The notes below the pieces were generated by a model that was not told where the DNA came from, did not search any database, and saw only the letters and a program-made list of their open reading frames with translations. A stretch of DNA of 52,934 bases from a virus (taxonomy: Duplodnaviria > Caudoviricetes), in IMG/VR virus record IMGVR_UViG_3300011126_000153, positions 1 to 52,934 of that record. The stretch is one strand, 5' to 3'. A program made the position numbers and the translations under genes. Position 1 is the first letter of the stretch. Each line of letters opens with the position of its first letter. Positions 2,253 to 44,492 of this stretch are shown here, piece after piece.

Positions 2253-3308
2253 ATGCATAATACCTCTGGTACTTATGATTTTCAATCTATCGAAGTTGAA
2301 CTTATTATAAGGGAAGCTTTTGAAAGAATTGGTATCTCTGGGGAATTTGTAGAACCTATAAAATTAGATTCAGCTAAAAGAAGTATCAATTTCTTGCTTC
2401 TTGATTGGATGAGTAAAAGTATTAATTTATGGACTTTAAAAAGCTTTTATATGACGCTAATAGAAGGGCAAAGAGAATATAAGTTAGCAACTGAAGTAAG
2501 TGATATTATTCAAGCTAATCTTAGAACATCAACGCGCCAGTTAAACGGCACTGCATCTTCTAGTGAGGGTAATGCTGCAAATGCATTTGATGGCGATTCT
2601 AGCACTGCGTGTACTCAAGTTACACCAGGGGGTGATATAACATATGATTATGGGGAGGGGGTAACTCAACAAATTACTTTTTTTGGTATTCAATCTAATG
2701 TGGAAACTAACCCTAACCTATTAGTAGAGATTTCTTTAGATAATATTAATTGGGTAACTATATTGTCAATTTTACCTAATGAGCACACCCTTGTTGTGGG
2801 AGTTATTGAATGGTTTGATATTCCAACTCCGTATGATGCAAGGTACTTTAGAGTTAGTAGTTTTTCAGATGAACCTCTTGATATTCAAGAGATATATTTT
2901 AATAACAACACTTTAGATTTTGCCATTACCAATGTAAGTAAGTACGAATACAATAATTACCCAAATAAATATCTGCAAGGTCGGCCTTCTGTTTATTATC
3001 TTGATCGTCAATCTGATCCTATTGTAAATATATGGCCTACTGCCTCAGAGCAATATAATTGCCTATTTATTTCGTATAAAGAAATGATGCAAGATGCAGG
3101 ATCTTATACCAACTCTCTTGATATTCCCTCAGGATTCTATCCTGCTTTAGTTTGGGGCTTAAGTTGGCACTTAGCTTTAAAATACAATCCTTCATTAGCC
3201 GAGATGCTAAAGAATGAATACGAGCAATCTTTTACTATTGCTACAAATGAAGATACAGAAAGCGTCCCTATACACCTTGGAATTGATGACAGTAGTTATA
3301 GAGAATAG
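2253..3308 (+). CDS. Head-tail adaptor-like virion protein with an inserted discoidin/galactose-binding-like domain
   Basis: N-terminal TSGTYDF...IIREAFERIG...AKRSINFLLLDW..NLW; central ANAFDGDSST...ARYFRV; C-terminal GRPSVYY..IWP..ALVWGL. Confidence 0.65.
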   Translation: MHNTSGTYDFQSIEVELIIREAFERIGISGEFVEPIKLDSAKRSINFLLLDWMSKSINLWTLKSFYMTLIEGQREYKLATEVSDIIQANLRTSTRQLNGTASSSEGNAANAFDGDSSTACTQVTPGGDITYDYGEGVTQQITFFGIQSNVETNPNLLVEISLDNINWVTILSILPNEHTLVVGVIEWFDIPTPYDARYFRVSSFSDEPLDIQEIYFNNNTLDFAITNVSKYEYNNYPNKYLQGRPSVYYLDRQSDPIVNIWPTASEQYNCLFISYKEMMQDAGSYTNSLDIPSGFYPALVWGLSWHLALKYNPSLAEMLKNEYEQSFTIATNEDTESVPIHLGIDDSSYRE

Positions 3309-18447: not shown

Positions 18448-18927
18448 TTATGAAATATTCTTATAAAGTTCTGCAATCGGTGTTTCAAAAATTTTTGAAA
18501 GTTTGTATATTATAGAACCAGGTATTTCATCATGAGTTGTTTCATATCTAATAACTTGTTCTGGAGATACATTTAGTTTAATTGCTAGTTCCTTACGATG
18601 CATTTTATGAGTTTTTCTTAGTTCTTTTAAATTCTCAGAAATCTTTTTATCCATATTAGAACACCATTCAATTGGAAGAGTCGTATCGTTTATTGAAAGT
18701 GATGTATTTGCATAAAACTCCTCAATAGGAGTTTTGAAAAATTTTGCAAGTATTGATAATGAGGCAGCTGATATTCTGTTGGTAGCTTTTTCATATTTTT
18801 GAATTTGTTGAATGCTAACATTTAACACATTTCCTAGTCTTCTCTGGCTAAGCCCTTCTTTTATTCTCATTTGTTTTACGTTATGAGCAAGCTGTTTATC
18901 AATTATTGTACTGCGTGTGTTAGTCAT
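18448..18927 (-). CDS. XRE-family regulator with two HTH domains
   Basis: LSQRRLGNVLNVSIQQIQKYEKATNRISA (alphaproteobacterial-type) and a second HTH ELAIKLNVSPEQVIRYE. Confidence 0.9.
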   Translation of the reverse strand: MTNTRSTIIDKQLAHNVKQMRIKEGLSQRRLGNVLNVSIQQIQKYEKATNRISAASLSILAKFFKTPIEEFYANTSLSINDTTLPIEWCSNMDKKISENLKELRKTHKMHRKELAIKLNVSPEQVIRYETTHDEIPGSIIYKLSKIFETPIAELYKNIS

Positions 18928-18977: not shown

Positions 18978-19898
18978 TTATTTCTCTGTTTTTACTAGTT
19001 CAATAAGTTCAAGGCTAGAACTTTTCTTCCAAGCTTCTTTTAAAGAAGCAGATCCTTTATCTGTAATTTTGTTGTGATCTATATATAAGTATTCAAGACT
19101 AGTGTTTATTTTTAAAGCCTCAGCAAAAGCGATAGCTCCTTCGTCTGAAATTTTGGTATAATCTAAATAAAGTGATTTAAGATTAGTGTTTGTTTTTAAA
19201 GCCTCGGCTAATGCAATAGCTCCTTTGTCTGTAATGTGATTCATGCCTAAATCAAGGGAGGTAAGACTAGTATTTGTTTTTAAAGCCTCAGCTAGAGCGA
19301 TCGTTCCTTTGTCTTCAAGGTTGTTAAAACTTAAATCAATAAAATTAAGTGTAGTGTTTGTTTTCAAAGATTCGGCTAATGCAATAACTCCTCTATCTGT
19401 AATTTCATTTTCACCTAAATTAAGAAAGTGAAGTGCAGCGCCTATTTTTAAAACATGCGCCAAAGCAATAGCTCCTTCATCTGCAATCCGGTTCTGAACT
19501 AGTTCAAGCCTATTAAGGGTTAAGTTTTCTTTTACTAAGTCTGGTCTCCAAAACCAATCTTGATCTATAACGTTTCTAGGTACTACAATTCTAGGTAATA
19601 CAACCCAATCTCCTCCTATCAACCAAATCTTAGTTAAAGCAATAACTCCTTCGTCTGAAATTCGGTTGTGACTTAAATCAATACTACGAATAGAAGTATT
19701 TACCTTCAAAGCGTTAGCAAAAGCGATAACTCCTTCGACTGAAATTTGATTATTAGGTAGAAAAAGATGTTTGACCTCTTTATTTGTCATCAATTCGTCG
19801 GCTAATTCTATAGCTCTTTCATCATCTATGCTGCTGTTATATAAACTTAACAGCCCGTCATTTATCCCCCTTATGTATCTTTTAATAGTTGTACTCAT
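18978..19898 (-). CDS. RNI-like (NLRC3-type) leucine-rich repeat protein
   Basis: 28-aa repeats GAIALAEALKTNTxLxxLxLxxNxITDK. Confidence 0.92.
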   Translation of the reverse strand: MSTTIKRYIRGINDGLLSLYNSSIDDERAIELADELMTNKEVKHLFLPNNQISVEGVIAFANALKVNTSIRSIDLSHNRISDEGVIALTKIWLIGGDWVVLPRIVVPRNVIDQDWFWRPDLVKENLTLNRLELVQNRIADEGAIALAHVLKIGAALHFLNLGENEITDRGVIALAESLKTNTTLNFIDLSFNNLEDKGTIALAEALKTNTSLTSLDLGMNHITDKGAIALAEALKTNTNLKSLYLDYTKISDEGAIAFAEALKINTSLEYLYIDHNKITDKGSASLKEAWKKSSSLELIELVKTEK

Positions 19899-19901
19899 AA
19901 G

Positions 19902-20555
19902 TCATTCCTCATTTTTAAAAATTTCGTTATATTGATTCACATATTCCTTTATCATAGGTATACATTCCTCAATTGTTTCGGTAATTAACTTTTGCATTTC
20001 ACTATCGTAATCAACTCTAAATATAAACAACCCATTACCTTTAGTTGCATGTTTGTCGTTATATAGCACGTAATCACACCATTTTCTAGAACAAACGAAC
20101 AAATTGAACTGCATTTGCCATCTATGCTCCTTTGAGATAGCCTCTACGCCCTTCTGAGAGATCTCTACGACCTGTCTAAAATAATTATTAGAATCTGGTG
20201 ACTTAATCTCAATCATGCCATCATCGCCCACTAATCCGTCGGGAGAACACGCTATGTAATCGTTCAATTGTACTAGCCCTACTTCATCAACAGCGGTAAA
20301 TTCAGAAACTATATATTCATTTCGTGCTATTGCTTCATTATCCCATCCTCGCTGAATATGAACATTTACATATTCAGCACCGTCTGATTTACAGCCCGTG
20401 ACTTTTTCGTTGGCTCTATCGTAAAGATATTTCTCACGCGCTGCTTTAGTACCTAGTAGTTTGTAAAAGCAAGAAGCAGTGATTTTACCTAGCCTTAACT
20501 TTAGCCATTCCTCACTGCCTTGCTCTATATCATTGTGTAACTGTATTTGCGACAT
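19902..20555 (-). CDS. YqaJ/lambda-exonuclease family protein
   Basis: QGSEEWLKLRLGKITAS, CSPDGLVG, IEIKSP, QMQFNL, WCDYV. Confidence 0.93.
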   Translation of the reverse strand: MSQIQLHNDIEQGSEEWLKLRLGKITASCFYKLLGTKAAREKYLYDRANEKVTGCKSDGAEYVNVHIQRGWDNEAIARNEYIVSEFTAVDEVGLVQLNDYIACSPDGLVGDDGMIEIKSPDSNNYFRQVVEISQKGVEAISKEHRWQMQFNLFVCSRKWCDYVLYNDKHATKGNGLFIFRVDYDSEMQKLITETIEECIPMIKEYVNQYNEIFKNEE

Positions 20556-21387
20556 TTAAAAACTGCTCTTTAAATTTAAAAAAATTCATTATGCCATTTT
20601 TTACCGTTTCCTTATCATTGCTATTGATATTATGAAAAGTAGCGAATTTCCCAGCGTCTATCTCATTATCTTTGCATAAGCCTATTAATTCTTTTACAAC
20701 TTCTACTTCCTCGCTTTTACTTTCTTCTACTTTTTTTATTTTTTGCGATTTATCATCATCTTTGATATTAAGGCTTTTTCCCTCCATTTCTTCCGCTGTT
20801 GGGTGTTGGCTAACAAATTCAGGAAATGCCTTACGTAACGCTTGTGCTTCAGTACATTTTGCAAGTTGCCCATATGGTCTCTTAGACCACATTGCATTAG
20901 GCGCTTGAGACTGAGATGCTATAGCCACATTTTCCATCCAATATTCTTTCGCGGAAAACTCAACAACTATCCCGTCTATTATTTTTTTTACTGTAACTTT
21001 GCACCATTTTGGATAGGTTATCTTTACTTGTCCAAAAGTGGTTGTTACATCTTCGCCATATTCAGGCTCAACAACACCTGCATATTGTCCACTACGCGCG
21101 GCTTGTATGCGATATAAGCCAATACCTGGCATTATAATATCCCTCCACTCAGAGTTTCTAGTCCCTGGGATTTTAATGTTCATTGGAACTATATGCACTG
21201 GCTTTTGCATTGGGTCTAATTTACCAGCCTTGCAATAATCCAAAACCATTAAAATACTTGCGTCTTTAGCTCCAGTGTATAAGCTGTTTTTAAGTGCCGA
21301 CCAAATAGAAGAGTCAATCCCATATTCATTGGTTGGTTTTGCTATTTGTACTTGTTCTTTTTTTTCTAAATTATTCATATTTTCCAT
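20530..21387 (-). CDS. bet: Phage single-strand annealing protein (Bet/RecT family)
   Basis: YCKAGKLDPMQKPVHIVPM, GIGLYRIQAARSGQYAG, MWSKRPYGQLAKCTEAQALRKAFPE. Confidence 0.92.
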   Translation of the reverse strand: MENMNNLEKKEQVQIAKPTNEYGIDSSIWSALKNSLYTGAKDASILMVLDYCKAGKLDPMQKPVHIVPMNIKIPGTRNSEWRDIIMPGIGLYRIQAARSGQYAGVVEPEYGEDVTTTFGQVKITYPKWCKVTVKKIIDGIVVEFSAKEYWMENVAIASQSQAPNAMWSKRPYGQLAKCTEAQALRKAFPEFVSQHPTAEEMEGKSLNIKDDDKSQKIKKVEESKSEEVEVVKELIGLCKDNEIDAGKFATFHNINSNDKETVKNGIMNFFKFKEQFLNVANTVTQ

Positions 21388-23087: not shown

Positions 23088-24347
23088 ATGGGATTAGCAC
23101 TAAGACAAGAAGAAACAGCAGAAAATCAACAACAAATAGGAAAACTTCTATCCTTCCGTGACGATAAATCTTATTACAGAAAAACATATATGAACTGGGA
23201 TAATATTGAACGAGCCAACAAAAACGATAATGCGGTTCATGGTAGAACTAAGCTTTTAAGTAATCGTGCGAAGAGTATAGCTGCTGTATCCGTGGGAAAA
23301 CTAACAAAAGGGCATAGGGTATTTTTCAATCATAAATACCTCTCTACTATCACCATGTGTGGAAAAAGACAGAACCTAACTATCATTGATGAATTAAGAG
23401 ATATACTTGAGATTACTTACCATAATACGGTCACTCATAACGGTAAGAAATATCGTTATTGTTATGAGTTTTCCTTTAAGTCGGAGAAGCCAGTAAACAC
23501 ACCTACTTCAGAAAGTTCTGTAGCGAGAAATAGCGTACATCAAAACGAAACACTCTATATACAAGAAGAAAATAAACATATTGAAGATATAGATCTATCA
23601 TCTAATATTTTAAATAATTCTTCCTTGCAAATTCAGACTGAAGATTCGAATTTACACGGTAATTCTTTTATAAAAAATTCAGTTACAAAAGCTTTAGCTG
23701 CAAACAGAAGAAAAAAAACCACCAATGCGCAGAAAAAAGCTAGGATTTACCGACCTATGTTCAATAATCAATATCCACAAACTAAAAATTTAGCTTGTCA
23801 TTACCCTTTGACAAGTGAGGATTGTTCATTGTTACAAAGCAGATCGGGTAGGGATTTTACTTTAAACGCTATGAATGAGATATTACTCGCCTTGTCTAAC
23901 AAACCTAAGGAGTCTGAGCATGAGTTCCCATCCAAAGAGGCTTTTCTGGCTTATATGAGCAAGATTTACAGGTATGAAAAACGAGATGCTGTTAAAACTA
24001 GCCAGATAAATTACCAGATAAAAGCAAACATGACCGAATTGGACATAATCGAGCAAACTAATTTCGCACAACGGGAGAAGTTTTTGGATAAAATAGAGCA
24101 AGAGGCAATAAGGCATGTGAGTTCTAATAACCAGCTAAAAGCCAAGCTAGCTAATACATTGCCACCAAGTGTAGCTTATGATTTTCTTTCTAAATTAAGG
24201 CGTTTTTATGTTAATGGGGGAATATTAGAGGCTCATCTAACATCAGCAATAGAACTCAGCCATTCGATACAGCAAATGATTGTAAAAGAGGCTAATGCTG
24301 TTGGTTATACTGGTGTTATGAGTTTAAAAGTGATACAAATGAAATGA
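23088..24347 (+). CDS. Replication initiator resembling Rickettsia-plasmid DnaA-like Rep (copy 1)
   Basis: FNHKYLSTITMCGKRQN..IIDELRDIL..YH..YCYE; LQSRSGRDFTLNAMNEILL; EKRDAVK; recognised from memory of the family. Confidence 0.75.
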   Translation: MGLALRQEETAENQQQIGKLLSFRDDKSYYRKTYMNWDNIERANKNDNAVHGRTKLLSNRAKSIAAVSVGKLTKGHRVFFNHKYLSTITMCGKRQNLTIIDELRDILEITYHNTVTHNGKKYRYCYEFSFKSEKPVNTPTSESSVARNSVHQNETLYIQEENKHIEDIDLSSNILNNSSLQIQTEDSNLHGNSFIKNSVTKALAANRRKKTTNAQKKARIYRPMFNNQYPQTKNLACHYPLTSEDCSLLQSRSGRDFTLNAMNEILLALSNKPKESEHEFPSKEAFLAYMSKIYRYEKRDAVKTSQINYQIKANMTELDIIEQTNFAQREKFLDKIEQEAIRHVSSNNQLKAKLANTLPPSVAYDFLSKLRRFYVNGGILEAHLTSAIELSHSIQQMIVKEANAVGYTGVMSLKVIQMK

Positions 24348-24352
24348 TGTAT

Positions 24353-24427
24353 TGGGATATAGCTCAGCGGTAGAGCGGTAGTCTTTGGTATTGCAGGTCG
24401 GAGGTTCGATCCCTCCTATCCCAGCCA
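24353..24427 (+). tRNA. tRNA-Gln(UUG) with encoded CCA
   Basis: Acceptor TGGGATA/TATCCCA, D arm GCTC/GAGC, anticodon loop CT-TTG-GT, T arm GGAGG-TTCGATC-CCTCC, discriminator G. Confidence 0.93.
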
Positions 24428-26050: not shown

Positions 26051-26355
26051 AATATACAATTGATGACACACGTAAGTTTATATCGAATATTTACATGTGG
26101 CTTACTACTAACGATGATTTGGACTATATCGAAAGTTGTGTAATGGATTGTTCCTCAGAGGAGTACATGAGGATTCGCTGCAAGTTAAACGCAATTTCAA
26201 AAGATAGTAGGTCTGCTCTTAATAAAGTCGCTGAGTATGTAGATGAGACCGATGCTTGCATGCGAATATTAAGAGTAGCTGCTGAAAGAGAGCGAAATAT
26301 TAGGAAAGAAGAAAAGGCTTATAAAAAGCTCAATAAGGGGGCTATTAATGAGTAA
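26047..26355 (+). CDS. Hypothetical protein
   Basis: ORF coupled to both neighbours. Confidence 0.7.
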   Translation: MKYTIDDTRKFISNIYMWLTTNDDLDYIESCVMDCSSEEYMRIRCKLNAISKDSRSALNKVAEYVDETDACMRILRVAAERERNIRKEEKAYKKLNKGAINE

Positions 26356-27613
26356 AGCATCAATGAAACGAATGCCTATAAATAACCTGTACTATTTTGA
26401 CAAGGGGGATCAAAAGCACAAATTCACCTACGACCAAGTTAAAAGGGCTACTAAATATATTACTCGTGCTAATGATAGAACTAAGACCATAGGGAACAAG
26501 CAAGCAGCTATTTTAGTTACGGACTTAGTGGATAGGCTAAATAAAAGCGAGAACGGATCTATTTATGTAGATCATGATTATCTTTCTAGCATCACGGATT
26601 GTTTGCCAGATCAGAATACAAAAATAATTAAGCAGCTAGCAGATATACTAGATTTTCAATATCACCGTTATGCAAGACAGGTAAAGCAATCATATTGCTA
26701 TGAAGTCAAATATACACATGATGGTGAAGATAGAATCAAAAACCCAGAACTATTTTATGATGTAAAACCTCCTAAAAACGAGGAAAGGAGGCCTAAAAAT
26801 ATCGCGATAGAACCAAAACCATACCCGATAAAAATCGGGGTTATAGCCGATAAAAATCAGCCATCATATATAGATATAAGAGATAAGGAAGAAATAAAAG
26901 AAAAAGAAGAATTAGATCCTTCTTTTTCTTTAGCGCGCGAGGTTATAACGAAATTTCCAACTAATTCTAAAACCCCAACCAAAACAAACGAGGAGAAAAC
27001 CGTGAACACGGAGAAAATTAAGCCCATAACGCAGTTATCATCCGAAATTTTTAGAAATTTTGATACTCAAACCAGTGAGGAGATCATAGAAAACTGTGTT
27101 TTTGAGGAGGTTACACCTAGTAAAATAGCCATCAACATAAAACCTAGCTTTGCTATGTCTGGCGAGAACAAGCAAAAAATTAAATCCTGTATTCGTAAGC
27201 TTTACGGGGAGGATGTACAGATGGTCAATGCCTCGTCTACCGTCCCGCAAAAACCTAAATTCTCTGTTGCAAAAGTAGCTCGTGAGGAGGGGAATCCACC
27301 AGAAACCCGAAAAAACGTTAGCCACGAATGGGGTGATATGAAAACGAAAATACTTGAGCGTTTTCCTTTGGATTACTACGATCACCTAAAGTCAGCATGG
27401 CTAGATAATCTAAATTTTATTAGGTTTGAAGATGAAAAAATAATAGTCCGAGCGCGTGCTTTTTATATTGATGAGATCTTTCAGCGATTCTCTCATGCAA
27501 TTGAACTAGCCGTGCTTAATACGAAGAAAAGCCTAGTTATTCAATACGAAAACAATGACCAACGACCGATCGAATTTTTATATAAACAAATTTTAAACAA
27601 GAGTAAAAAATGA
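26348..27613 (+). CDS. Replication initiator with C-terminal DnaA_N-like domain (copy 2)
   Basis: N-terminus paralogous to 23088 (ITRAN, HDYLSSITDC..QN..IIKQLADIL..YH..YCYE); C-terminal W..KSAWLDNL..IIVRA..FYIDEI..RF matches DnaA domain I. Confidence 0.8.
   Translation: MSKASMKRMPINNLYYFDKGDQKHKFTYDQVKRATKYITRANDRTKTIGNKQAAILVTDLVDRLNKSENGSIYVDHDYLSSITDCLPDQNTKIIKQLADILDFQYHRYARQVKQSYCYEVKYTHDGEDRIKNPELFYDVKPPKNEERRPKNIAIEPKPYPIKIGVIADKNQPSYIDIRDKEEIKEKEELDPSFSLAREVITKFPTNSKTPTKTNEEKTVNTEKIKPITQLSSEIFRNFDTQTSEEIIENCVFEEVTPSKIAINIKPSFAMSGENKQKIKSCIRKLYGEDVQMVNASSTVPQKPKFSVAKVAREEGNPPETRKNVSHEWGDMKTKILERFPLDYYDHLKSAWLDNLNFIRFEDEKIIVRARAFYIDEIFQRFSHAIELAVLNTKKSLVIQYENNDQRPIEFLYKQILNKSKK
26768..26861. 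repeat. Iteron-like repeats inside rep copy 2 (candidate origin)
   Basis: CCTCCTAAAAACGAGG, GGCCTAAAAATATCGC, CCCGATAAAAATCGGG, GCCGATAAAAATCAGC, followed by an A/T-rich tract. Confidence 0.6.
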
Positions 27614-28617: not shown

Positions 28618-28874
28618 ATACAATAGATATAAGGCGTGAATATGGCAGTGTTGTGTTTCGTTTAAGAGAGTCCGTTAAGGCTCGCGCGGACTGGTATGTT
28701 GAATATAATGAGCATGTTTATTCAAAAGAAGAAATATTTTACTTCGAGTTTTTAGATAAATGTATAGAGGATGATATTAAACAATTGCAATTAGCGGTAA
28801 AGCAGAATGAAAAAGATAACGATAAAAATATAATAAACTTTAAATCCAAGAATGGAGATAAAAATGAGAAATAG
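28614..28874 (+). CDS. Hypothetical protein (MNTID start)
   Basis: ATGA overlap; GGAGG RBS. Confidence 0.65.
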   Translation: MNTIDIRREYGSVVFRLRESVKARADWYVEYNEHVYSKEEIFYFEFLDKCIEDDIKQLQLAVKQNEKDNDKNIINFKSKNGDKNEK

Positions 28875-29283
28875 CGCAGAAATACAGCTGATAGGATATG
28901 TTTACCAAGATGCAAAATGCCCGAATGAGCAAGCTTATCCTAACTGGGTAACGTTTAAAGTTTGTGTTAATAAAAAATATAAAGATAAAAGCGGACAAGA
29001 ACAACAAGATACTAGCTGGTTCGAATGTAAATCTAATTCTGAAAAACAATCTCAGTTAATTAAATTATACGTTAAAGATAAAAGCGGAATACTCGTAAGA
29101 GGAATACCTAAAGTAAGAGCCTATACCTCGAGCGCAGGTACTGCTGAAGGTAGCATAGAAGTAATGGTTACATCCTTTGATGTTTTAACTAAGCCCAAGG
29201 GTAATAACACGACCTCTGAGAGTAACTATTCAAATAAGAGTGTACCTGTAGAATCGTTTAAAGATGATGATATCCCGTTTTAG
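28864..29283 (+). CDS. ssb: Single-stranded DNA-binding protein
   Basis: N..QLIG, YKDKSGQEQQDTSWF, acidic DDDIPF tail. Confidence 0.93.
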   Translation: MRNSAEIQLIGYVYQDAKCPNEQAYPNWVTFKVCVNKKYKDKSGQEQQDTSWFECKSNSEKQSQLIKLYVKDKSGILVRGIPKVRAYTSSAGTAEGSIEVMVTSFDVLTKPKGNNTTSESNYSNKSVPVESFKDDDIPF

Positions 29284-30847: not shown

Positions 30848-31519
30848 CTATTCGTCAATATAGTTGATTGTTCGTTCACCGCTTTCGCTAATGTGTAATA
30901 CGTCATAATCTTCTACTACAGTCATACTTTTTAGCTCAAGTTTCATAAGTGAATCATTTGTTCCCAGTGCCTCAGCAAATGCAATTGCTCCGTACTCGGA
31001 TATTATATTATGACTTAGATCAAGGTTTTTAAGAGTATGATTGAACTTTAAAGAATGGGCAATTGATGCTGCTCCGCTATAAGTAATCAAACACTGAATT
31101 AGCTCAAGAGTAGTGAGAGTAGTATTAACCTTTAAAGCCTGGGAAAATTCATCTGCCATTACATCCCCCATATAAGCATCTATTATACTAAGAGAAGATA
31201 GTTTTTTATTAAAATGTAAAGCCTCGGCGATAGCAGTAGTATCACACATTTTGGTATGGATTAGCTCTAGGCTCTCGAGAGTATCATTTACTTTTAAAGC
31301 TTCGCCTAATGCAATAGCTCCTTCCTCTTCTATTGATATGTCTCCTATATAAAGCCCGGTAACAGATTTATTTACTTTTAAAGCTTCCGCTAGAGCAATT
31401 ATTTCTTCAGTCGTTAGCTTTACAAATTCTTCACCTGAATTGTCGTAATTAGATAAGAATATCATGTTGTCTTTGTTTTTAGTGGCTAGAAATTCGTGTA
31501 TAATTGATAGGTATTTCAT
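30848..31519 (-). CDS. Second RNI-like (NLRC3-type) LRR protein
   Basis: Repeats such as GAIALGEALKVNDTLESLEL and LKFNHTLKNLDLSHNII; AGGAG RBS. Confidence 0.9.
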   Translation of the reverse strand: MKYLSIIHEFLATKNKDNMIFLSNYDNSGEEFVKLTTEEIIALAEALKVNKSVTGLYIGDISIEEEGAIALGEALKVNDTLESLELIHTKMCDTTAIAEALHFNKKLSSLSIIDAYMGDVMADEFSQALKVNTTLTTLELIQCLITYSGAASIAHSLKFNHTLKNLDLSHNIISEYGAIAFAEALGTNDSLMKLELKSMTVVEDYDVLHISESGERTINYIDE

Positions 31520-31570: not shown

Positions 31571-31640
31571 ACTATAAAACACTATTTATTAGTTGTCAAT
31601 AGTTTTTTTTATTTACAACAACTATTTTATAATATATATT
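31571..31640. promoter_or_regulatory. Back-to-back sigma70 promoters (LRR gene leftward, RHH gene rightward)
   Basis: Minus TTGACA-N17-TATAGT (31599-31571); plus TTTACA-N17-TATATT (31612-31640). Confidence 0.7.
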
Positions 31641-31671
31641 ATGGAGACAATTAATTAAGTGAGTAAATATT

Positions 31672-31833
31672 ATGAGTAAAGAAGAAAAAAGTAAAACTAG
31701 TGTTATATCGGTATCAATGCCTAATGAGTTATATGATAAGCTAAGGGCGTATGCGGAGCAGAAGGATAGGTCAAAGGGTTCTGTTATGAGGACGGGACTT
31801 AAGTTGCTTTTAGAGGAGGAAAATAGAAAGTAG
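31672..31833 (+). CDS. CopG/ribbon-helix-helix regulator, 53 aa (not in track)
   Basis: MSKEEKSKTSVISVSMPNELYDKLRAYAEQKDRSKGSVMRTGLKLLL. Confidence 0.85.
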   Translation: MSKEEKSKTSVISVSMPNELYDKLRAYAEQKDRSKGSVMRTGLKLLLEEENRK

Positions 31834-38329: not shown

Positions 38330-38515
38330 ATGAACTTAAAACAAGAACTACAGCTTTTAAGCACAAAACTAAAAGGAGTAATGAAATCTGTTGGTGGTAT
38401 TGAAAACGAGGAATACGTTAATCAAGATAAGATAATAAATACACAAGGTGATATTAAGTCTTTAGTTGAGCAATTAATGGACTTATCAGGTGAACTTGAG
38501 GATAGAGGTTTATGA
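38330..38515 (+). CDS. Small helical hypothetical protein
   Basis: GAGG RBS; ATGA overlap. Confidence 0.65.
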   Translation: MNLKQELQLLSTKLKGVMKSVGGIENEEYVNQDKIINTQGDIKSLVEQLMDLSGELEDRGL

Positions 38516-38889
38516 TAGAAGACGATCAAATATTCACAAAAGAACAGTTATTGAAAGTAACGGAATTAGCTGAATTATTTCCGAGTGAGAAGGTAGCTCA
38601 CGATTTTGGAATTAAGGCTGGTAGATTTGTGAAGTTAAGAAGAGAACAACCAGAATTAAATGAAGCTTATAATAAAGGCGCTAAAATCAGAGCGTTAAGG
38701 AGAATAGCTGATAAAGCTGCTGGTAGAACTGGAGCTAAAACTAAACTTATAAAAATGCCGGAATATATAGTTCCTATAGAGCTTAATTCAGAAAACGATG
38801 CTTGGGCTGGTTTTAAAAAGAAATTTCAAGAAAATAAGGAAAGAGAGCTAAAGAAAGAATTGAATGAGATAAGGAATATATTATTATGA
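38512..38889 (+). CDS. HTH protein, TerS-N-terminus-like
   Basis: EKVAHDFGIKAGRFVKLRREQPELNEAYNKG. Confidence 0.55.
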   Translation: MIEDDQIFTKEQLLKVTELAELFPSEKVAHDFGIKAGRFVKLRREQPELNEAYNKGAKIRALRRIADKAAGRTGAKTKLIKMPEYIVPIELNSENDAWAGFKKKFQENKERELKKELNEIRNILL

Positions 38890-38976
38890 AGGAACAAAAC
38901 GAACTAGAGTTTAATATCAATTATCATTATGCGCATACTAATTGCAATACCATGATGTTAGCTTTCATGCATAGAT

Positions 38977-39000
38977 TCCAGAAAACGGCCGTTTTCTGGA
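38977..39000. repeat. Perfect 24-bp palindrome without spacer
   Basis: TCCAGAAAACGGCCGTTTTCTGGA. Confidence 0.9.
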
Positions 39001-39130
39001 CATGCTGATAATATGTTCGAAAACGCCTATAATTCGCTAGTTAACTCATTCCATTTATCTAAACAAGTTTAACCCCTCGGTTTTATCTTTTTAGATGAAT
39101 ATATATAATAAACAAAACAGGAGAAAAGTT

Positions 39131-39475
39131 ATGACTGAAGAAAACAACAAAGATTATGAAAAATTATATCAGTTTATGCTTGAAAATAATCTTATAAATT
39201 ATAAGGGTTCGGCCTCATGGTTTTTAACAAAGATCAGAGATCACGATAAACCAAAGGATGAAAAATATAAAATGATGTTCGATTGTATAGAGAAAATCGT
39301 AATAAACAAGGTTAAGATGAGTGATAAAGACAATGTATTTGATGTATTGGGTATGCTTCAAGGATTAATTGATATAGTTGAACCAATCTTTGACGATAAT
39401 AATAAAATTATAGGATATGGAATTTATGACAAGGAATATAGTAAAATTATAAATGATATTATGAGCATCTGCTAA
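39131..39475 (+). CDS. Hypothetical protein
   Basis: AAACAGGAGA..TTATGACTGAA start block shared with 39497. Confidence 0.7.
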   Translation: MTEENNKDYEKLYQFMLENNLINYKGSASWFLTKIRDHDKPKDEKYKMMFDCIEKIVINKVKMSDKDNVFDVLGMLQGLIDIVEPIFDDNNKIIGYGIYDKEYSKIINDIMSIC

Positions 39476-39496
39476 CAAATAAACAGGAGAGAAATT

Positions 39497-39727
39497 ATGA
39501 CTGAATACAAAATTTTAAATGAGGAAAGGGTGAAAAATACGAAGGAACATGGCATTTTAATGGAGGAAAGAAGAAAAAATATGACTAAAGAAGACGACGA
39601 ATCAATGAAAGAAACATTACATTTACAATCTATACAAAGGGCATTAGATATATTCAATAAACATAACATAGATCCTTTGAAAGAGTGGATTCTTTGTGAT
39701 GAAGTTTTGGGAGAAGACAATACTTGA
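39497..39727 (+). CDS. Hypothetical protein ending in VLGEDNT
   Basis: AGGAG RBS. Confidence 0.7.
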   Translation: MTEYKILNEERVKNTKEHGILMEERRKNMTKEDDESMKETLHLQSIQRALDIFNKHNIDPLKEWILCDEVLGEDNT

Positions 39728-39757
39728 TTAGCCAAGTTGTTAATTAAGTAATATAAA

Positions 39758-39802
39758 AACATGCGCTGAGTCCATTGGTATAAAAAGGATGCAGCGCATG
39801 TT
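39758..39802. terminator. Long hairpin upstream of the membrane-protein pair
   Basis: AACATGCGCTG...CAGCGCATGTT with inner GTCC/GGAT. Confidence 0.55.
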
Positions 39803-39825
39803 GTGTTAATTGTTGGAGGTAGACG

Positions 39826-39993
39826 ATGTTAAAAGTTTTTATAGATGTTTTATTAATATGGGTTGTTGTAAGCGAATTGGAACATTTTAGTGTGATATCT
39901 ACAGATAATCACTATATCAATATAATTTGTGGTTGTGTGGGTATGGGTTTAGTAATGGTATTTAGCTACATGAAAAAAAGTAAAAAGAAGTAG
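39826..39993 (+). CDS. 55-aa protein with two hydrophobic segments and a basic tail (holin-like; not in track)
   Basis: GGAGG RBS; MLKVFIDVLLIWVVVSELEHFSVISTDNHYINIICGCVGMGLVMVFSYMKKSKKK; paralogue of 40001. Confidence 0.65.
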   Translation: MLKVFIDVLLIWVVVSELEHFSVISTDNHYINIICGCVGMGLVMVFSYMKKSKKK

Positions 39994-40000
39994 GTAGAAG

Positions 40001-40333
40001 ATGTTAAGATGGTTGATAAATGTTTTATGCGTAATTTTGGTGGTTAAAGGACTTGAATATTTTGATGTGTTATCTGTAGATTATCACTATATCAGTATAA
40101 TTTGTGGGTATATGTATTTGGATTTATCAAGCGATATAGACAAAGTAATAAAAACTCAACAAGAAAAACTGGATGAAATAATAAAAGCTCAAGGAGAATT
40201 AAAAGAATCTCAAGGAGAATTAAAAAAAGAGTCTTGGGAAGAGAGAAGATTGGCTGTTAAACATTTAGCAAAGTTTATTAAGTATGAACATAAAACAATA
40301 TTGGAAGAAATAAGAGGGGAATATAAAAAATAG
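40001..40333 (+). CDS. Membrane protein with coiled-coil tail; paralogue of 39826
   Basis: Shared LExF.V.S.D.HYI.IICG. Confidence 0.7.
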   Translation: MLRWLINVLCVILVVKGLEYFDVLSVDYHYISIICGYMYLDLSSDIDKVIKTQQEKLDEIIKAQGELKESQGELKKESWEERRLAVKHLAKFIKYEHKTILEEIRGEYKK

Positions 40334-40428
40334 GCAAAGAATAGATTGCTAGGATTAAGACTTTGTAAAAATCAACAAAAACTAAGTTTTTAACGATCGT
40401 ACACCAAAATTAGTGATATTTAAGTGAC

Positions 40429-40456
40429 ACTTTCCATAATCAACATTATGACGCTA
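40429..40456 (-). other. dif-like XerC/XerD recombination site
   Basis: Minus strand TAGCGTCATAA-TGTTGA-TTATGGAAAGT: 11-6-11 layout with CATAA/TTATG inner dyad. Confidence 0.75.
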
Positions 40457-40511
40457 ATTTTGGGCGAGAGTTTTCTTAATGAAATTTAGTGGGATTTAAA
40501 AAATATAATTG

Positions 40512-40545
40512 GTCGGCTTAGAAGAACTTAATCTTCTAAGTCGAT
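40512..40545. terminator. 14-bp hairpin
   Basis: GTCGGCTTAGAAGA-ACTTAA-TCTTCTAAGTCGAT. Confidence 0.6.
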
Positions 40546-40549
40546 AAAA

Positions 40550-40664
40550 GGAAATAAATGCATTCAGCGAAAGCGGAAACTACTATGAAAAAGCTTTCGC
40601 TAATACATCTAATTAAGCGTAGTAATCAATCAATTAAATATTAAAAGAAAATTCTTAATTAGGT
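40550..40664 (-). ncRNA. Candidate sRNA A (ends approximate)
   Basis: Promoter TTGCAC-N17-TAGTGT; stem CUAAUUAAG/CUUAAUUAG, loop UUGAUUACU, second stem AGCGAAAGC/GCUUUCGCU. Confidence 0.5.
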
Positions 40665-40702
40665 AAATATACACTACACTAGAAAGTAGATCGGTGCAAT
40701 GT

Positions 40703-40820
40703 ATAATTTAGCGGGATCAAAAATGATTGCAAAAGACCTAAAAAACCCCGCTAAATACCCAATTAAAATCAATATAGAAAGTAATCAACTAAATAGAAAT
40801 ACGAAAAATCTTAATCAGGC
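40703..40820 (-). ncRNA. Candidate sRNA B, paralogue of A (ends approximate)
   Basis: Promoter TTGCAA-N17-TAGTTT; stem CCUGAUUAAGAUU/GAUUUUAAUUGGG, loop UUGAUUACU, second stem UUUAGCGGG/CCCGCUAAA. Confidence 0.5.
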
Positions 40821-40872
40821 AATGGAAAACTACTATAAAACATTGCCGGTTGCAATTAAAAAACATTTAGAC

Positions 40873-40935
40873 TGAAATAAGGAGATCTTTTTGACTCCTT
40901 ATTTCAATCTACTCGTCATTTTGAAATAAGGAGAT
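40873..40935. repeat. Triple 12-bp element (direct-inverted-direct)
   Basis: TGAAATAAGGAG at 40873 and 40922; its complement CTCCTTATTTCA at 40895. Confidence 0.85.
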
Positions 40936-40946
40936 AGTGAACAAAG

Positions 40947-41261
40947 TTATCCTAACTCTAGTGCAGCCATAACATCATCCTCACCCCAGCCAAGAGTTTT
41001 TGCATAATCTTCTATTGTTAACCCAATTATAGGAAGCTCTGTATCTGGCATTATTGCTGGTGTAAAGCCGTAATCTTCATGATTGCTATATTGCAGAGTA
41101 ACATGATCAATATAACTAGAAACTATTTGGTTTAATCCTTTGATATCATGTTTATTAAGAAGATCTATAATAACAGGACATAAATCATTAATTCGTGCTT
41201 CTAATTCAGGGAAGTCATATATAGTATCTTCTTGTGAATCTTCTTGGGCGTCTTTTTCCAT
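40947..41261 (-). CDS. Acidic hypothetical protein
   Basis: AAGG RBS; stand-alone ORF. Confidence 0.65.
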   Translation of the reverse strand: MEKDAQEDSQEDTIYDFPELEARINDLCPVIIDLLNKHDIKGLNQIVSSYIDHVTLQYSNHEDYGFTPAIMPDTELPIIGLTIEDYAKTLGWGEDDVMAALELG

Positions 41262-41562
41262 TTTTTTTCCTTAAATATAATTAATATAATGCGTAAATAT
41301 TAAATATTATTCGCATAATTGTATTATAATATAAAATTATATAAATAGCAACGTGTTAGTATTACCAGTGTAACTAGCGGAATTTATTTTTTTCAATCCC
41401 TTTGTCTATATAGGTTTGAGAGGTGTTTAGAAAATCGTTTAATACTATATAACTTCTAATAAGTTAGATAGCAACCTAATCAAGGTTTAGCATAAATTTC
41501 TCACGTCTTTAATAGGTATGATAAAATAAATTACAAGCAAATCAATTAAACGGAGAGCTGTA

Positions 41563-42066
41563 ATGACTAAAGGATTTTTAACAGACTATAACAATCGTAT
41601 ATTTTCTCATATTAAAACTACGGATATAGCCAAAAATAAACAAGGATCTCCTTTGGATAACCACTCATTAAGAGATAAGCAAGAAGAGCTTATCAAAGAA
41701 CAAGAGGTATCTATAAGAGAAAGACAACAGAATATAAATCTAGCAACAGTCGAACAAAATAACTTAATGAGAGAGAGAGAAGAGTCTATCAAGGCTCAAG
41801 AAGAGGCTCTTGAGATTAGACAGCAGAATATAATCCGCATAGCATCTGAGTGTGATTTGGAAAGGGAGGCTTTGGTATTATTGGTGATTGAACAAGCTCA
41901 AGAAAGAGATTGGTTAAATGAAGTTAAGAGATTACAGGAAGAAGAAAGAGAGCGATTAGCTATAGTAATAAATGAAGAAGAAGCTAATCTTTATAATATA
42001 GCTTTAGAACCTAATATAGAAAACGATTATGTAGTACCTGTCTTAGGAGAGGATAATGAATTTTAG
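41563..42066 (+). CDS. Glu-rich coiled-coil protein ending in VLGEDNEF
   Basis: Own extended -10 (41519) and GGAG RBS. Confidence 0.75.
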   Translation: MTKGFLTDYNNRIFSHIKTTDIAKNKQGSPLDNHSLRDKQEELIKEQEVSIRERQQNINLATVEQNNLMREREESIKAQEEALEIRQQNIIRIASECDLEREALVLLVIEQAQERDWLNEVKRLQEEERERLAIVINEEEANLYNIALEPNIENDYVVPVLGEDNEF

Positions 42067-42134
42067 ATTTATCTAGAAAATCGAAAAAACGTGATAAAAT
42101 ATAGAATTACATTAAAAAGAATAGGTTAAAGACT

Positions 42135-42854
42135 ATGGTTAACAATAAATTCGTTGCTTTTGTTACATTAAGCTTATTGATAGCAATTAATTATGCATCA
42201 ATATCATGCGCAGAACCTAAGCAAAACCAATATTATATAAAGATGGTAAATACACTCTCTAATATATCGGGTATTAAAGCAAATGAGCCTGATTTAAATT
42301 TCAAATTAACGCAGGGGTCAAAGCTGTCTCCATCTATTGGTTTGGGTTTTGGTTATTATATTAATGATAGATTTAGAGTTGATACTATATTTGAGTTAGC
42401 AAGATTTAATTTCGACAAAGAATCCTCCGGCTTCGAATGTAATAACGGAATTTCTACATCAGTAGGGACTAAATCCATGCAACGTAAGAGTAGCAGTAAA
42501 TCTATAATGTTCAATGGTTATGCAGATCTAGCAGAGAGGAACGGACATAAAATATTTATAGGTGCAGGTGTCGGAGCTATAAGAATATCAGAGAAAATAA
42601 CTCATACTTTGTCAGGAACTACTTTATCACCTCTTGGCGCTCATACCTTTCCTTTGCTAACTGAAAATAATACTAACAAAGTGAGAAACAAGTTAGCTTA
42701 TTCATTGATGTTAGGTAGTAGCTTTAAGGTGTATCCTCAAATAAATATTGAGCTAATGTATAGTTGGAAAAATCTAGGTAAAGTTAAATGCTCGAATTTT
42801 AATAGCCAATATAAAGGTCATCATTTTTCTATTGGATCACGCTTTGATATTTAA
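42135..42854 (+). CDS. Outer-membrane beta-barrel protein (opacity/OmpA-TM-like; Rickettsiales surface antigen type)
   Basis: Signal peptide; GLGFGYYINDRFRVD, MFNGYADL, FIGAGVG, IELMYSWKNLG, C-terminal GSRFDI. Confidence 0.9.
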   Translation: MVNNKFVAFVTLSLLIAINYASISCAEPKQNQYYIKMVNTLSNISGIKANEPDLNFKLTQGSKLSPSIGLGFGYYINDRFRVDTIFELARFNFDKESSGFECNNGISTSVGTKSMQRKSSSKSIMFNGYADLAERNGHKIFIGAGVGAIRISEKITHTLSGTTLSPLGAHTFPLLTENNTNKVRNKLAYSLMLGSSFKVYPQINIELMYSWKNLGKVKCSNFNSQYKGHHFSIGSRFDI

Positions 42855-42869: not shown

Positions 42870-44492
42870 ATGACTAACAATACCAATAAAAAGTTATCTG
42901 ATCTTGAAGTAGATACATTAGAAAGTCATGCAAATGCATTGATGGCGGAGATATCGTTATATGAGTTCTTAAAGCAGGCATGGCCTAATATAGTAGGTGA
43001 TCAGGAATTTATTGGAGGGAAGCACATAGAGGTGATTTGTGAGCATTTAGAGCTTGTAGCTAGCCGCAAGATAAAAAAATTACTTATTAATCTCCCTCCT
43101 AGATTCTCTAAATCAACATTGATTTCTGTAGCCTTTCCCGCTTGGGTTTGGTTACGTAATCCTTCTGAGAGATTTTTATGCTCTAGTTACGCTTTGCAAT
43201 TAGCTCATCGTGATTCTAGGTTTTGTCGTACTCTTATGCAGTCTCCATGGTATAAGAAACACTGGAAAGCTCGTTTTTCATTATTAAAAGATCAGAATAC
43301 CAAGGGAAGATTTGATAATACACATAGGGGGTCTCGTATAGCTACTTCTTCCAAGAGTGCAGCCACTGGAGAGGGTGGCTCTATTTTGATAAGTGATGAT
43401 GCTAATAATATCAAAGATGGACAATCGAAGGTAGATAGAGAGGGGCGAATAAATTGGTGGTCGCAGGTTTGGTCTACTAGATTAAATAACAAGAAAAATG
43501 ACTGCATGATTGTTGTTCAACAAAGATCACATGAACGAGATATCTCGGGCTATATTATGGATAATGATGTAAGTGATTCTTGGGTTAAATTAATTATGCC
43601 TATGGAGTTTGAGCTAAATAGAAAGGCTAAAACAGTAGTATTGCCATCTACCAACGGTAAAGTATGGGAGGATTGGAGAACAGAAGAAGGAGAACTACTT
43701 TGTCCAGAGCGTTTTGGTGCTAAAGAAGTTGAGCAAACAAAAGAGGATTTAGGCAGTTATGGTTATGCAGGACAATATCAACAACGTCCTTCACCAGCAA
43801 AAGGCTGTATAATTCAGAAGGAATGGTTTAGATGGTGGAAAGATTCAACTCCTCCACAAATTGATTTTGTTGTTCAGAGTTGGGATACAGCTCTTACTAC
43901 AAAGAAAATTACACAGGAAGCTGGGGGTGGAATAACATCTTATTCGGCCTGTACTACATGGGGAGTATTCAATGATGAGAATAATATACCTAACGTTATT
44001 TTATTATCTATGTGGAGAGGAAGGGAGGAATATCCGGAGGTTAGAGAAAGAACTAAACGTTTATACTTTGATTATAGGGATACGGGAAAAGAAAGAGAAC
44101 CTAGATTTAAAGGTAAAAATGTAGATATGTGCCTTATTGAATCTAAGGCCTCAGGATCTCCTTTAATTCAAGATTTAATATTAGCGGGAGTTCAAGCTAT
44201 GCCTTTTGATCCTAAAAAACATGGTGATAAAGAGGGAAGGGTGCGTTTAATTACTCCTTTAATAGAAGGTGGTAGGGTGTGGCTTCCTGCTAGAGCGCCT
44301 AAATTCACTGCTTTATTACCATTTGCAGATGAGTTTTTAGAGGCAGTCTCTGGTTTTCCTAACGCTGAGTCTAAAGATATAGTAGATACTATGTCTCAAG
44401 CTTTCCTGAAATTAAAATACGGTTATTTTATCTCAAGTCCAAAGGACGAAAGGCATTCACAACCTTATGTAAAAGAGGTGAATCTCTACTAA
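42870..44492 (+). CDS. terL: Terminase large subunit
   Basis: LLINLPPRFSKS Walker A, TGEGGSILISDD, GQYQQRP, QSWDTA, IESKASG, FPNAESKDIVD. Confidence 0.95.
   Translation: MTNNTNKKLSDLEVDTLESHANALMAEISLYEFLKQAWPNIVGDQEFIGGKHIEVICEHLELVASRKIKKLLINLPPRFSKSTLISVAFPAWVWLRNPSERFLCSSYALQLAHRDSRFCRTLMQSPWYKKHWKARFSLLKDQNTKGRFDNTHRGSRIATSSKSAATGEGGSILISDDANNIKDGQSKVDREGRINWWSQVWSTRLNNKKNDCMIVVQQRSHERDISGYIMDNDVSDSWVKLIMPMEFELNRKAKTVVLPSTNGKVWEDWRTEEGELLCPERFGAKEVEQTKEDLGSYGYAGQYQQRPSPAKGCIIQKEWFRWWKDSTPPQIDFVVQSWDTALTTKKITQEAGGGITSYSACTTWGVFNDENNIPNVILLSMWRGREEYPEVRERTKRLYFDYRDTGKEREPRFKGKNVDMCLIESKASGSPLIQDLILAGVQAMPFDPKKHGDKEGRVRLITPLIEGGRVWLPARAPKFTALLPFADEFLEAVSGFPNAESKDIVDTMSQAFLKLKYGYFISSPKDERHSQPYVKEVNLY

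Follow-up and report, generated by a model that had tools for sequence, protein, structure and literature searches.

A Conserved dif-Like Module in a Family of Tailed, Apparently Temperate Rickettsiales Phages: A Candidate Host-XerCD Site for Keeping the Phage Genome Monomeric

Introduction

The plasmid sites cer of ColE1 and psi of pSC101, multimer-resolution sites of host XerCD, share several traits with the phage locus described here: a replicon without its own recombinase, a single dif-like core, a centre unlike that of chromosomal dif and extra conserved sequence beside the core. The two cases differ in the carrier, which here is a 40-53-kb tailed Rickettsiales phage in which no plasmid partition genes were found, and in the flanks, which in the phages lie on both sides of the core and are short (~45 nt and 17-20 nt). 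The Cre-loxP system of phage P1 offers a further comparison. P1 is a temperate tailed phage kept as a circle, and a single site serves to make and keep its monomer circles. P1, however, encodes the recombinase, whereas the phage analysed here appears to rely on that of its host.

The principle of plasmid multimer resolution by host XerCD is set out in the Figure 1 legend of PMC11705084. The same paper describes Xer sites of Acinetobacter plasmids in which binding and cutting depend on an ATAA-centre-TTAT motif and the permitted partners on the sequence of the centre. The phage sites resemble these sites (xrs/pdif) in the conserved ATAA-centre-TTAT and in the diversity of their 6-bp centres, and may be likened to them also in that centres decide partners and recombination between replicons shuffles modules. 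In the Acinetobacter plasmids, however, several sites flank cassettes, whereas the phages have one site per genome, with one exact site in each phage record. Integrative mobile elements exploiting Xer (IMEX) comprise CTXphi, VGJphi, TLCphi and the gonococcal island and also non-tailed temperate vibriophages, double jelly-roll phages and microviruses. Like the phage, they lack an integrase, carry a dif-like site and rely on host XerCD, a reliance that is probable for the phage. Unlike IMEX, the phage is a tailed virus with centres unlike host dif, and no integrated copy or dif-phage junction was found. On these comparisons, the phage site would be functionally nearest to cer, psi and the Acinetobacter plasmid Xer sites, and IMEX-like in lacking an integrase.

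It is established that mobile DNA of several kinds, namely plasmids, filamentous phages and some small non-tailed phages, makes use of host XerCD. Among the titles and abstracts listed in our searches, none described a tailed phage using Xer, the Xer-dependent viruses among them being filamentous, double jelly-roll, microvirus-like or otherwise non-tailed; no literature uniting phage-plasmids, multimer resolution and Xer was found. To our knowledge, few Rickettsiales phages are known beyond phage WO of Wolbachia, and none of the titles and abstracts listed for Megaira and its prophages describes the present family. If the reading proposed below is true, host-XerCD use extends to tailed phages, and the persistence of temperate-looking phages without an integrase would be explained. 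A phage family with a recombination site that host enzymes should recognise could also become a genetic handle in bacteria that are hard to manipulate.

Genome, Source and Host Group

The window, that is, the whole stretch of 52,934 bp that was analysed, is a complete viral record with a 21-bp repeat at both ends, as after assembly of a circular or circularly permuted genome. Its principal genes are as follows.

2253-3308: SU10-type adaptor domain, virion gene
18448-18927: double-HTH repressor-like protein, a gene typical of temperate phages
18978-19898, 30848-31519 and 42135-42854: LRR_6-type leucine-rich-repeat proteins and an outer-membrane beta-barrel protein
19902-21387: RecT-like annealing protein and exonuclease, typical of temperate phages
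24353-24427: tRNA-Gln
28852-29283: single-stranded DNA-binding protein (SSB), typical of temperate phages
42870-44492: large terminase (TerL), virion gene
45016-47664: portal, virion gene

The remaining virion genes encode tail-fibre-like proteins and a virion structural protein. Leucine-rich-repeat proteins and the outer-membrane beta-barrel protein are among the accessory genes, which belong with the temperate-type genes and are of a kind met in intracellular bacteria, and the bulk of the other ORFs had no family match. The family is tailed, podovirus-like and apparently temperate, with Rickettsiales hosts. A 421-aa ORF (26348-27613) led to replication initiators (HTH_36, DnaA_N, Phage_rep_O) in an atlas search, which is a lead only. 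This protein and a second one of ~420 aa (23088-24347) appear to be paralogues, as both matched the same Megaera ORF; neither matched a Pfam or PHROG family. When the 421-aa and 419-aa ORFs were checked as hidden recombinases, no relative was found among solved structures.

The record derives from a marine sediment metagenome (one sample, three runs), available as contigs only, in which molecule ends and rare junctions are invisible; no RNA data set with the stretch was listed. Two strains of the window phage occurred together in this sample. Across the region 38500-42500, the second strain resembled the closest relative, L001, with a 42-nt insertion after 40502 and the L001 variant of the site's centre. 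A tRNA-Leu gene lies in the gap of L001 that holds the dif-like site, and the window is without tRNA-Leu there. A blastn search of the site region against a phage collection gave no match.

The host group was approached through TerL, and hence by evidence independent of the site. In a profile search of genomes, the closest relatives (55-58% identity) were found in Candidatus Bandiella numerosa and Candidatus Megaera venefica, both Rickettsiales. Three more matches lay on contigs of 1.6-4.9 kb in bins labelled Saccharibacteria, which we take to be mis-binned. A terminase match at E <= 1e-30 was present in 283 of 400 sampled Rickettsiales genomes; among the matches listed, the Bandiella and Megaera venefica assemblies alone exceeded 41% TerL identity, and the rest (33-41%, mostly one per genome) look like gene-transfer-agent-type terminases. 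The host group is thus Rickettsiales, an assignment at the level of the order. PMC2731167 states that the dif/Xer machinery is retained in this order, and XerD/XerC-type genes were present in all three host assemblies checked (G001, G002 and G123).

The 28-bp Site

The site and its surroundings were resolved into the following parts, all read on the minus strand.

40372-40428, minus strand: flank on the XerD-arm side, GTCACTTAAATATCAC in the window and GTTGCTAATTTAyCACG in the family consensus; conserved
40429-40456, minus strand: dif-like core of 28 bp (11-6-11), kept in L001 and the whole phage family
40429-40439, minus strand: XerD-type arm TTATGGAAAGT, identical at 10 of 11 bases to the Rickettsiales arm TTATGGAAAAT
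40440-40445, minus strand: 6-bp centre TGTTGA, putative strand-exchange region; the sole variable stretch among three otherwise identical relatives
40446-40456, minus strand: XerC-type arm TAGCGTCATAA, with inner CATAA conserved and the outer six bases divergent
40457-40509, minus strand: conserved stretch next to the XerC arm, containing A/T tracts and a TTAAG-AAA box; a candidate for accessory sequence (alignments A3 and A4)

On this strand, the site reads TAGCGTCATAA-TGTTGA-TTATGGAAAGT. The first-pass annotation had described a dif-like 11-6-11 site with the centre TGTTGA in non-coding DNA, and this description holds as given, since no ORF of at least 40 aa overlaps 40334-40698. The layout of a Xer site, with two 11-bp arms around a centre of 6-8 bp and inner ATAA...TTAT, was also kept in all 23 aligned elements of the family. 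In the window, the site was single-copy even when three mismatches were allowed.

Comparison with the dif sites of the host group gave different results for the two arms. Full Rickettsiales dif sites include TGAATACATAA-TATATA-TTATGGAAAAT and TAGGCCGATAA-TGTATA-TTATGGAAAAT; in Table 1 of Carnoy and Roten (2009; PMC2731167), dif of Ehrlichia ruminantium is ATATTACATAATGTATATTATGGAAAAT, and that of Rickettsia prowazekii has the same right arm. The pattern ATAA-N6-TTATGGAAA was found in 119 of 151 sampled Rickettsiales genomes, with TATATA, TGTATA or TCTATA as the centre in at least 50 of the 150 matches listed (hand count). A resemblance of the right arm to alphaproteobacterial XerD arms had been noted from the sequence; with 10 of 11 bases equal to TTATGGAAAAT, it can be sharpened to a resemblance to the Rickettsiales XerD arm. 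The alignment to Rickettsiales dif that had been suggested as a check was favourable for this arm. The XerC-type arm of the window shares 5-6 of 11 bases with known arms (dif sites of Rickettsiales genomes and Table 1 of PMC2731167), a poor match in which the inner CATAA is common to host dif and little besides. The centre TGTTGA agrees with the host-type TGTATA at four of six positions. Among the relatives, TTA or ATA stands at arm positions 4-6, before CATAA, in 16 of 23, and likewise in the dif sites of Ehrlichia and of L022, L026, L027 and L010. One Rickettsiales genome, G114, holds a phage-type site as well as two canonical dif copies; their XerD arms agree at 11 of 11 positions, and the phage-type centre CATTGA agrees with the dif centre TGTATA at two of six.

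Taken alone, the single site is only weakly significant. The exact pattern ATAA-N6-TTATGGAAA occurred once in the window against 0.03 expected, and in 3 of 100 dinucleotide shuffles. With one mismatch allowed, there were two matches against 0.59 expected, and at least two matches in 13 of 100 shuffles. Scored with a position-weight matrix that was derived from 11 dif sites of chromosomes, the site reached 12.1 bits, within chance when set against the top scores of simulated genomes (9.7 +/- 3.4), and the inner palindrome ATAA-N6-TTAT had 11 occurrences in the window. A second, one-mismatch dif-like string at 31622-31649, CTATTTTATAA-TATATA-TTATGGAGACA, overlaps a TATAAT-type promoter before a small ribbon-helix-helix ORF starting near 31674 and was read as chance. 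The case for the site rests on conservation.

The common palindrome and the unexceptional matrix score are what a chance resemblance in an A+T-rich genome would produce. Such a resemblance would, however, have to account for an exact host-type pattern expected only 0.03 times, for a site kept across phages whose TerL proteins are merely 47-75% identical, for the presence of one site per genome and for variation restricted to the centre. Chance is very unlikely as the explanation, and would require the family-wide conservation described below to be an artefact of the search patterns.

A Conserved Module in a Phage Family

The 28-bp site is the core of a non-coding module of ~130 nt, with extra conserved sequence on both sides that the first reading had not seen; the nhmmer match of the window to this module spans 40372-40509. 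When a viral collection was scanned with CATAA-N6-TTATGGAAANTGT, 57 stretches were retrieved, 29 of which contained the whole module. The 29 contigs were relatives of the window phage by synteny of terminase (47-75% identity), portal, outer-membrane protein, SSB and the 421-aa protein. A metagenome scan, in which the pattern forced the XerD-type arm and the right flank only, yielded 44 stretches, comprising 27 full modules, one module cut by a contig end and 16 unrelated sequences; CATAA, which was unforced here, was present in all 27 full elements. The two counts overlap, as some contigs were shared, judged by equal lengths. Most family members were found with patterns that force part of the core. 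A search with the flanks alone returned 25 matches, of which four were family members, all with the arms, and the other 21 were unrelated; it brought no family members beyond those already found.

The absence of the site from relatives had been named as grounds for abandoning the first reading, and the reverse was observed. In L001, whose terminase is 88-90% identical, both arms are unchanged and two adjacent bases of the centre differ, giving TGTGTA; the variant co-occurring in the source sample has the same two-adjacent-base difference from the window. Exactly one exact site was present in the window and in each of five whole records of relatives (CheckV completeness 100% for four, 84% for one). 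Two gene arrangements occur in the family, with either the outer-membrane protein and terminase or tail-fibre genes next to the left arm of the module. In one of them, 1.5-5 kb separate the module from the replication-initiator-like gene; in the other, TerL lies ~2.4 kb downstream of the module. Among 151 Rickettsiales genomes, the whole module was present in two, G002 (Candidatus Megaera venefica) and G114, and two Megaera contigs had the same arrangement as the window within a longer block of alignable sequence. In the Bandiella relative, no module was found within 10 kb upstream or ~6 kb downstream of TerL.

Entropies were computed on alignment A4, which comprises 23 elements. The first nine bases (TTATGGAAA) and the last T of the XerD arm were invariant, these ten positions being forced by the search, and the unforced position 10 was A, G or T across the family. 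The outer six positions of the left, XerC-type arm had an entropy of 1.55 bits, and its inner CATAA was fixed. This combination of a XerD arm fixed at forced positions and a loose outer XerC arm is the asymmetry typical of dif sites (PMC3025954). The centre was highly variable (mean 1.48 bits), with 21 different sequences in the 23 elements. Its commonest base at each position gives CCTTCA, compared with T-N-TATA in host dif, and it begins with C in 15 of 23 elements, whereas the dif-type centres found begin with T. The flank of ~45 nt on the XerC-arm side averaged 1.10 bits. The most conserved unforced stretch was the 15 nt at positions +3 to +17 past the XerD arm (TGCTAATTTAyCACG; 0.66 bits). 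These conserved flanks exceed the needs of a plain Xer site, and another protein may also bind; the XerD-side flank may hold an accessory factor.

It is also conceivable, if improbable, that the module mainly binds a phage-encoded or other host protein, whether it acts in transcription (operator or promoter), as an origin of replication or in DNA packaging, and that its likeness to dif is incidental or secondary. The 15 nt past the XerD-type arm, which a plain Xer site does not need, are the main reason to consider this, together with the position of the module 1.5-5 kb from a replication-initiator-like gene or ~2.4 kb upstream of TerL, the within-chance matrix score of the single site, and a weak sigma-70-like match (GTGATA, 16 nt, CATAAT) on the plus strand across flank and arm. 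Promoter-like matches in the region were, however, at background (13 against 11.0 +/- 3.7 in shuffles), and a cos or pac site is made less likely by the two gene arrangements, which show that the module can lie apart from the terminase genes. Binding by another protein would also not explain why the right arm is that of dif in an independently inferred host group (11 of 11 in the G114 pair), why the left arm of most relatives is of the TACATAA type of Rickettsiales dif, or why variation is bounded exactly by ATAA and TTAT. The promoter and terminator scan revealed no terminator-like site in the module region. An RNA element was considered and rejected: folding of the 23-element alignment gave a 5-bp palindrome only, with covariation at none of five predicted pairs, and a search of 39800-41600 against Rfam returned only a snoRNA match of 28.5 bits, compared with a gathering score of 90.

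Centre Swaps Bounded by the Arms

Over 628 aligned columns, the metagenome contigs L230, L231 and L240 agreed at 622; the remaining six made up the centre exactly. Their sites are listed below.

L230:4488-4515: dif-like site, centre CGCTTA
L231:6448-6475: dif-like site, centre CCTACT
L240:2382-2409: dif-like site, centre TCCATA

Leftward, L230 and L231 were identical over ~1.3 kb except for one indel window. Ordinary mutation cannot account for three to five changes within a run of six positions when the other 622 have none. The borders of the variation, ATAA and TTAT, coincide with the positions of the expected XerC and XerD cuts. We read such a swap of the centre as the probable footprint of strand exchange by a tyrosine recombinase with a 6-bp overlap at a partner site with a different centre; the confinement of strand exchange to the centre is suggested by comparison of the three contigs, which differ there and nowhere else in the aligned columns. 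A break of identity at the core (98% between L106 and L231 on one side, 71% on the other) and the two gene arrangements of the family are in line with strand exchange. Centres can also be stable, as L110, L114, L118, L122 and L247 differ in their flanks and all keep TAAAGC.

Identical sister copies cannot yield such swaps, which need recombination between different molecules. For this reason, integration at dif has to be weighed as well. The main alternative to a monomerisation site is an attachment site of IMEX type, through which the phage would integrate at chromosomal dif or a dif-like site by means of host XerCD and excise again. Whole-centre swaps between otherwise identical genomes are expected from integration and excision at sites with different centres; site-affinity mutants of lambda provide the ground for this expectation. 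Some centres are one base off the dif type, namely TGTGTA in L001 and TCCATA in L240. Most, however, are unlike host dif, with agreement at two of six positions in G114 and a first base C in 15 of 23 elements, and homology of the centre with host dif on at least one side, which would be expected of an IMEX, was seen neither in the G114 pair nor in the commonest centre bases of the family.

The swaps also bear on a broader proposal, which we put forward tentatively and with some doubt. The phage family might have lost its own recombinase and depend on host XerCD through a dif mimic whose 6-bp centre serves as an exchangeable compatibility code. As a rule, this code would differ from host dif and from the centres of other phages, so that recombination stays between sister copies; now and then it would be replaced wholesale by Xer exchange with other sites, which would also join genome modules at this point. 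If this is true, the swaps are natural footprints of Xer strand exchange in uncultured hosts. The centre-swap variants themselves form a natural data set on how centres control the partners of Xer sites.

Recombinase Genes, Partition Genes and Junctions

The genome had been called integrase-less from its ORFs, which proved correct for the two main families: neither tyrosine recombinases (PF00589) nor serine recombinases (PF00239) had a six-frame match in the window at E <= 1. PF00589 was likewise absent from the whole records of all five relatives, and PF00239 was found in one of them, as a small resolvase of 202 aa, leaving four of five without a tyrosine or serine recombinase. As far as PF00589 and PF00239 are concerned, the phage thus has no integrase of its own, as is the case for IMEX. 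For DUF3653, the family of Xer-activation factors, the one match lay within TerL and was below threshold. Genes of ParA type (PF13614) and for ParB (PF02195) were not detectable in the window.

Contigs joining host DNA at 40440-40445 had been proposed as a sign of integration, and none came to light. Hybrid junctions between a phage flank and a foreign flank were absent from all 28 family matches in the metagenome contigs. In the contigs of the source sample, there was no joint or loose end at 40429-40456, and contigs bridged the site in both variants, which weighs weakly against integration since contigs drop rare forms. The 151 Rickettsiales genomes, whose assemblies are fragmented, contained only whole modules (G002 and G114) or copies truncated by a host repeat, and none of them showed a phage copy integrated at the terminus of the host chromosome between dif or dif-like sites. 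In favour of an attachment site of IMEX type remain the missing integrase, the dif mimic with a host XerD arm and the phage DNA in the Megaira assembly, which is interrupted by a host repeat and is therefore a long-standing resident there. With the junction searches against it, we regard the integration reading as unlikely.

Proposed Role

The reading that we prefer, with about an even chance of being right, is that host XerCD acts on the module to maintain the phage genome as an extrachromosomal monomer circle, and that the centre of the site is specific to each lineage and differs from that of host dif. In this mechanism, which is drawn from sequence comparison, host XerD would bind the invariant TTATGGAAA-type arm and host XerC the (T)ACATAA-type arm, and the two enzymes would swap strands over the 6-bp centre. 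The reaction would act on two directly repeated copies, such as those of a dimeric or concatemeric circular genome or the pair carried by injected DNA with terminal redundancy, and the products would be monomer circles, as cer and psi yield for plasmids. A lineage-specific centre unlike host dif would confine recombination to sister copies and spare the chromosome, the conserved flanks would serve as accessory sequences, and the phage genome would remain extrachromosomal. Rare events with other sites could give rise to the centre swaps and module junctions of the relatives. That monomerisation is the main job, accompanied by occasional recombination between different molecules, seems to us about as probable as its opposite.

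A cer-like role fits because the site is single-copy, its centre is lineage-specific, no recombinase gene was found and the 421-aa ORF leads to replication initiators; the last point fits an autonomous circular replicon. It also fits the Acinetobacter work, in which the choice of partner by a Xer site depends on its centre (PMC11705084). Points against it are the undetected ParA and ParB, the poor XerC-type arm, the matrix score within chance and the TerL region of the Bandiella relative, which is without the module. The first-pass annotation had offered two outcomes of borrowing host XerCD, a monomeric plasmid or integration at dif. The borrowing itself is favoured by the layout, the XerD arm, the host group and the missing recombinases; its integration branch gained no support, and the plasmid branch is weakened by the lack of partition genes.

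Other dif-Like Sites and Repeats

Several further sites were encountered in the searches. The contigs of G005, G036, G043, G044, G066, G068, G127 and G141 with extra dif-like sites contained no genes of the window phage. In G005 (L056, L057 and L058) and G141 (L059), four contigs share a dif-like site whose flanks are much alike on either side. Three of these read TTGTCGCATAA-TATCTG-TTATGGAAAAT or a one-base variant of its left arm, and L056 reads TTCTCGCATAA-TATCCG-TTATGGAAAAT; this is another repeated element bearing a Xer site in Rickettsiales. On a 252-kb Rickettsiales contig (G068:C2), two dif-like sites in direct orientation (L050:7813-7840 and L052:2461-2488) lay 34.6 kb apart with no window-phage genes between them, and may mark the integration of some other Xer-dependent element. 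In G114, the two canonical copies of dif (L253 and L254; ...TCTATAA-TGTATA-TTATGGAAAAT) have ~30 nt of the XerD-side flank in common and differ on the XerC side, which could come from insertion of an element at dif or from a bin that combines two strains.

In G002, a repeated end, AGTC[T/C]CTCCGTCAAAACTC..., was located near dif-like sites on five contigs (L203:77-154, L047:2306-2419, L014:457-484, L046:448-562 and L045:1-384). It lay 3 nt inside the XerD-type arm on one contig, followed the arm at a distance of 9 nt on two and of 20 nt on another, and was ~330 nt away on the fifth. This repeat looks like an insertion-sequence end, and its proximity to the sites may reflect repeat density, as the contigs are tiny. 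It is reminiscent of the IS1202/ISAba32 group, which, according to a preprint (bioRxiv 10.1101/2022.12.17.520857), targets Xer sites at a distance of 5 bp.

A gene-transfer-agent-like terminase in G123 (G123:C1:497511-499067, L022), 36% identical to the window TerL, begins at a distance of 186 bp from dif of the chromosome; several further genomes have such a terminase and dif within ~6-110 kb of one another. Five unrelated viral contigs with 44-61% G+C (L099, L101, L131, L137 and L139) carried canonical-looking dif-type sites, such as ACATTGCATAA-TATATA-TTATGGAAAAT, and may stem from further Xer-dependent viruses or from the ends of prophages, with host dif included.
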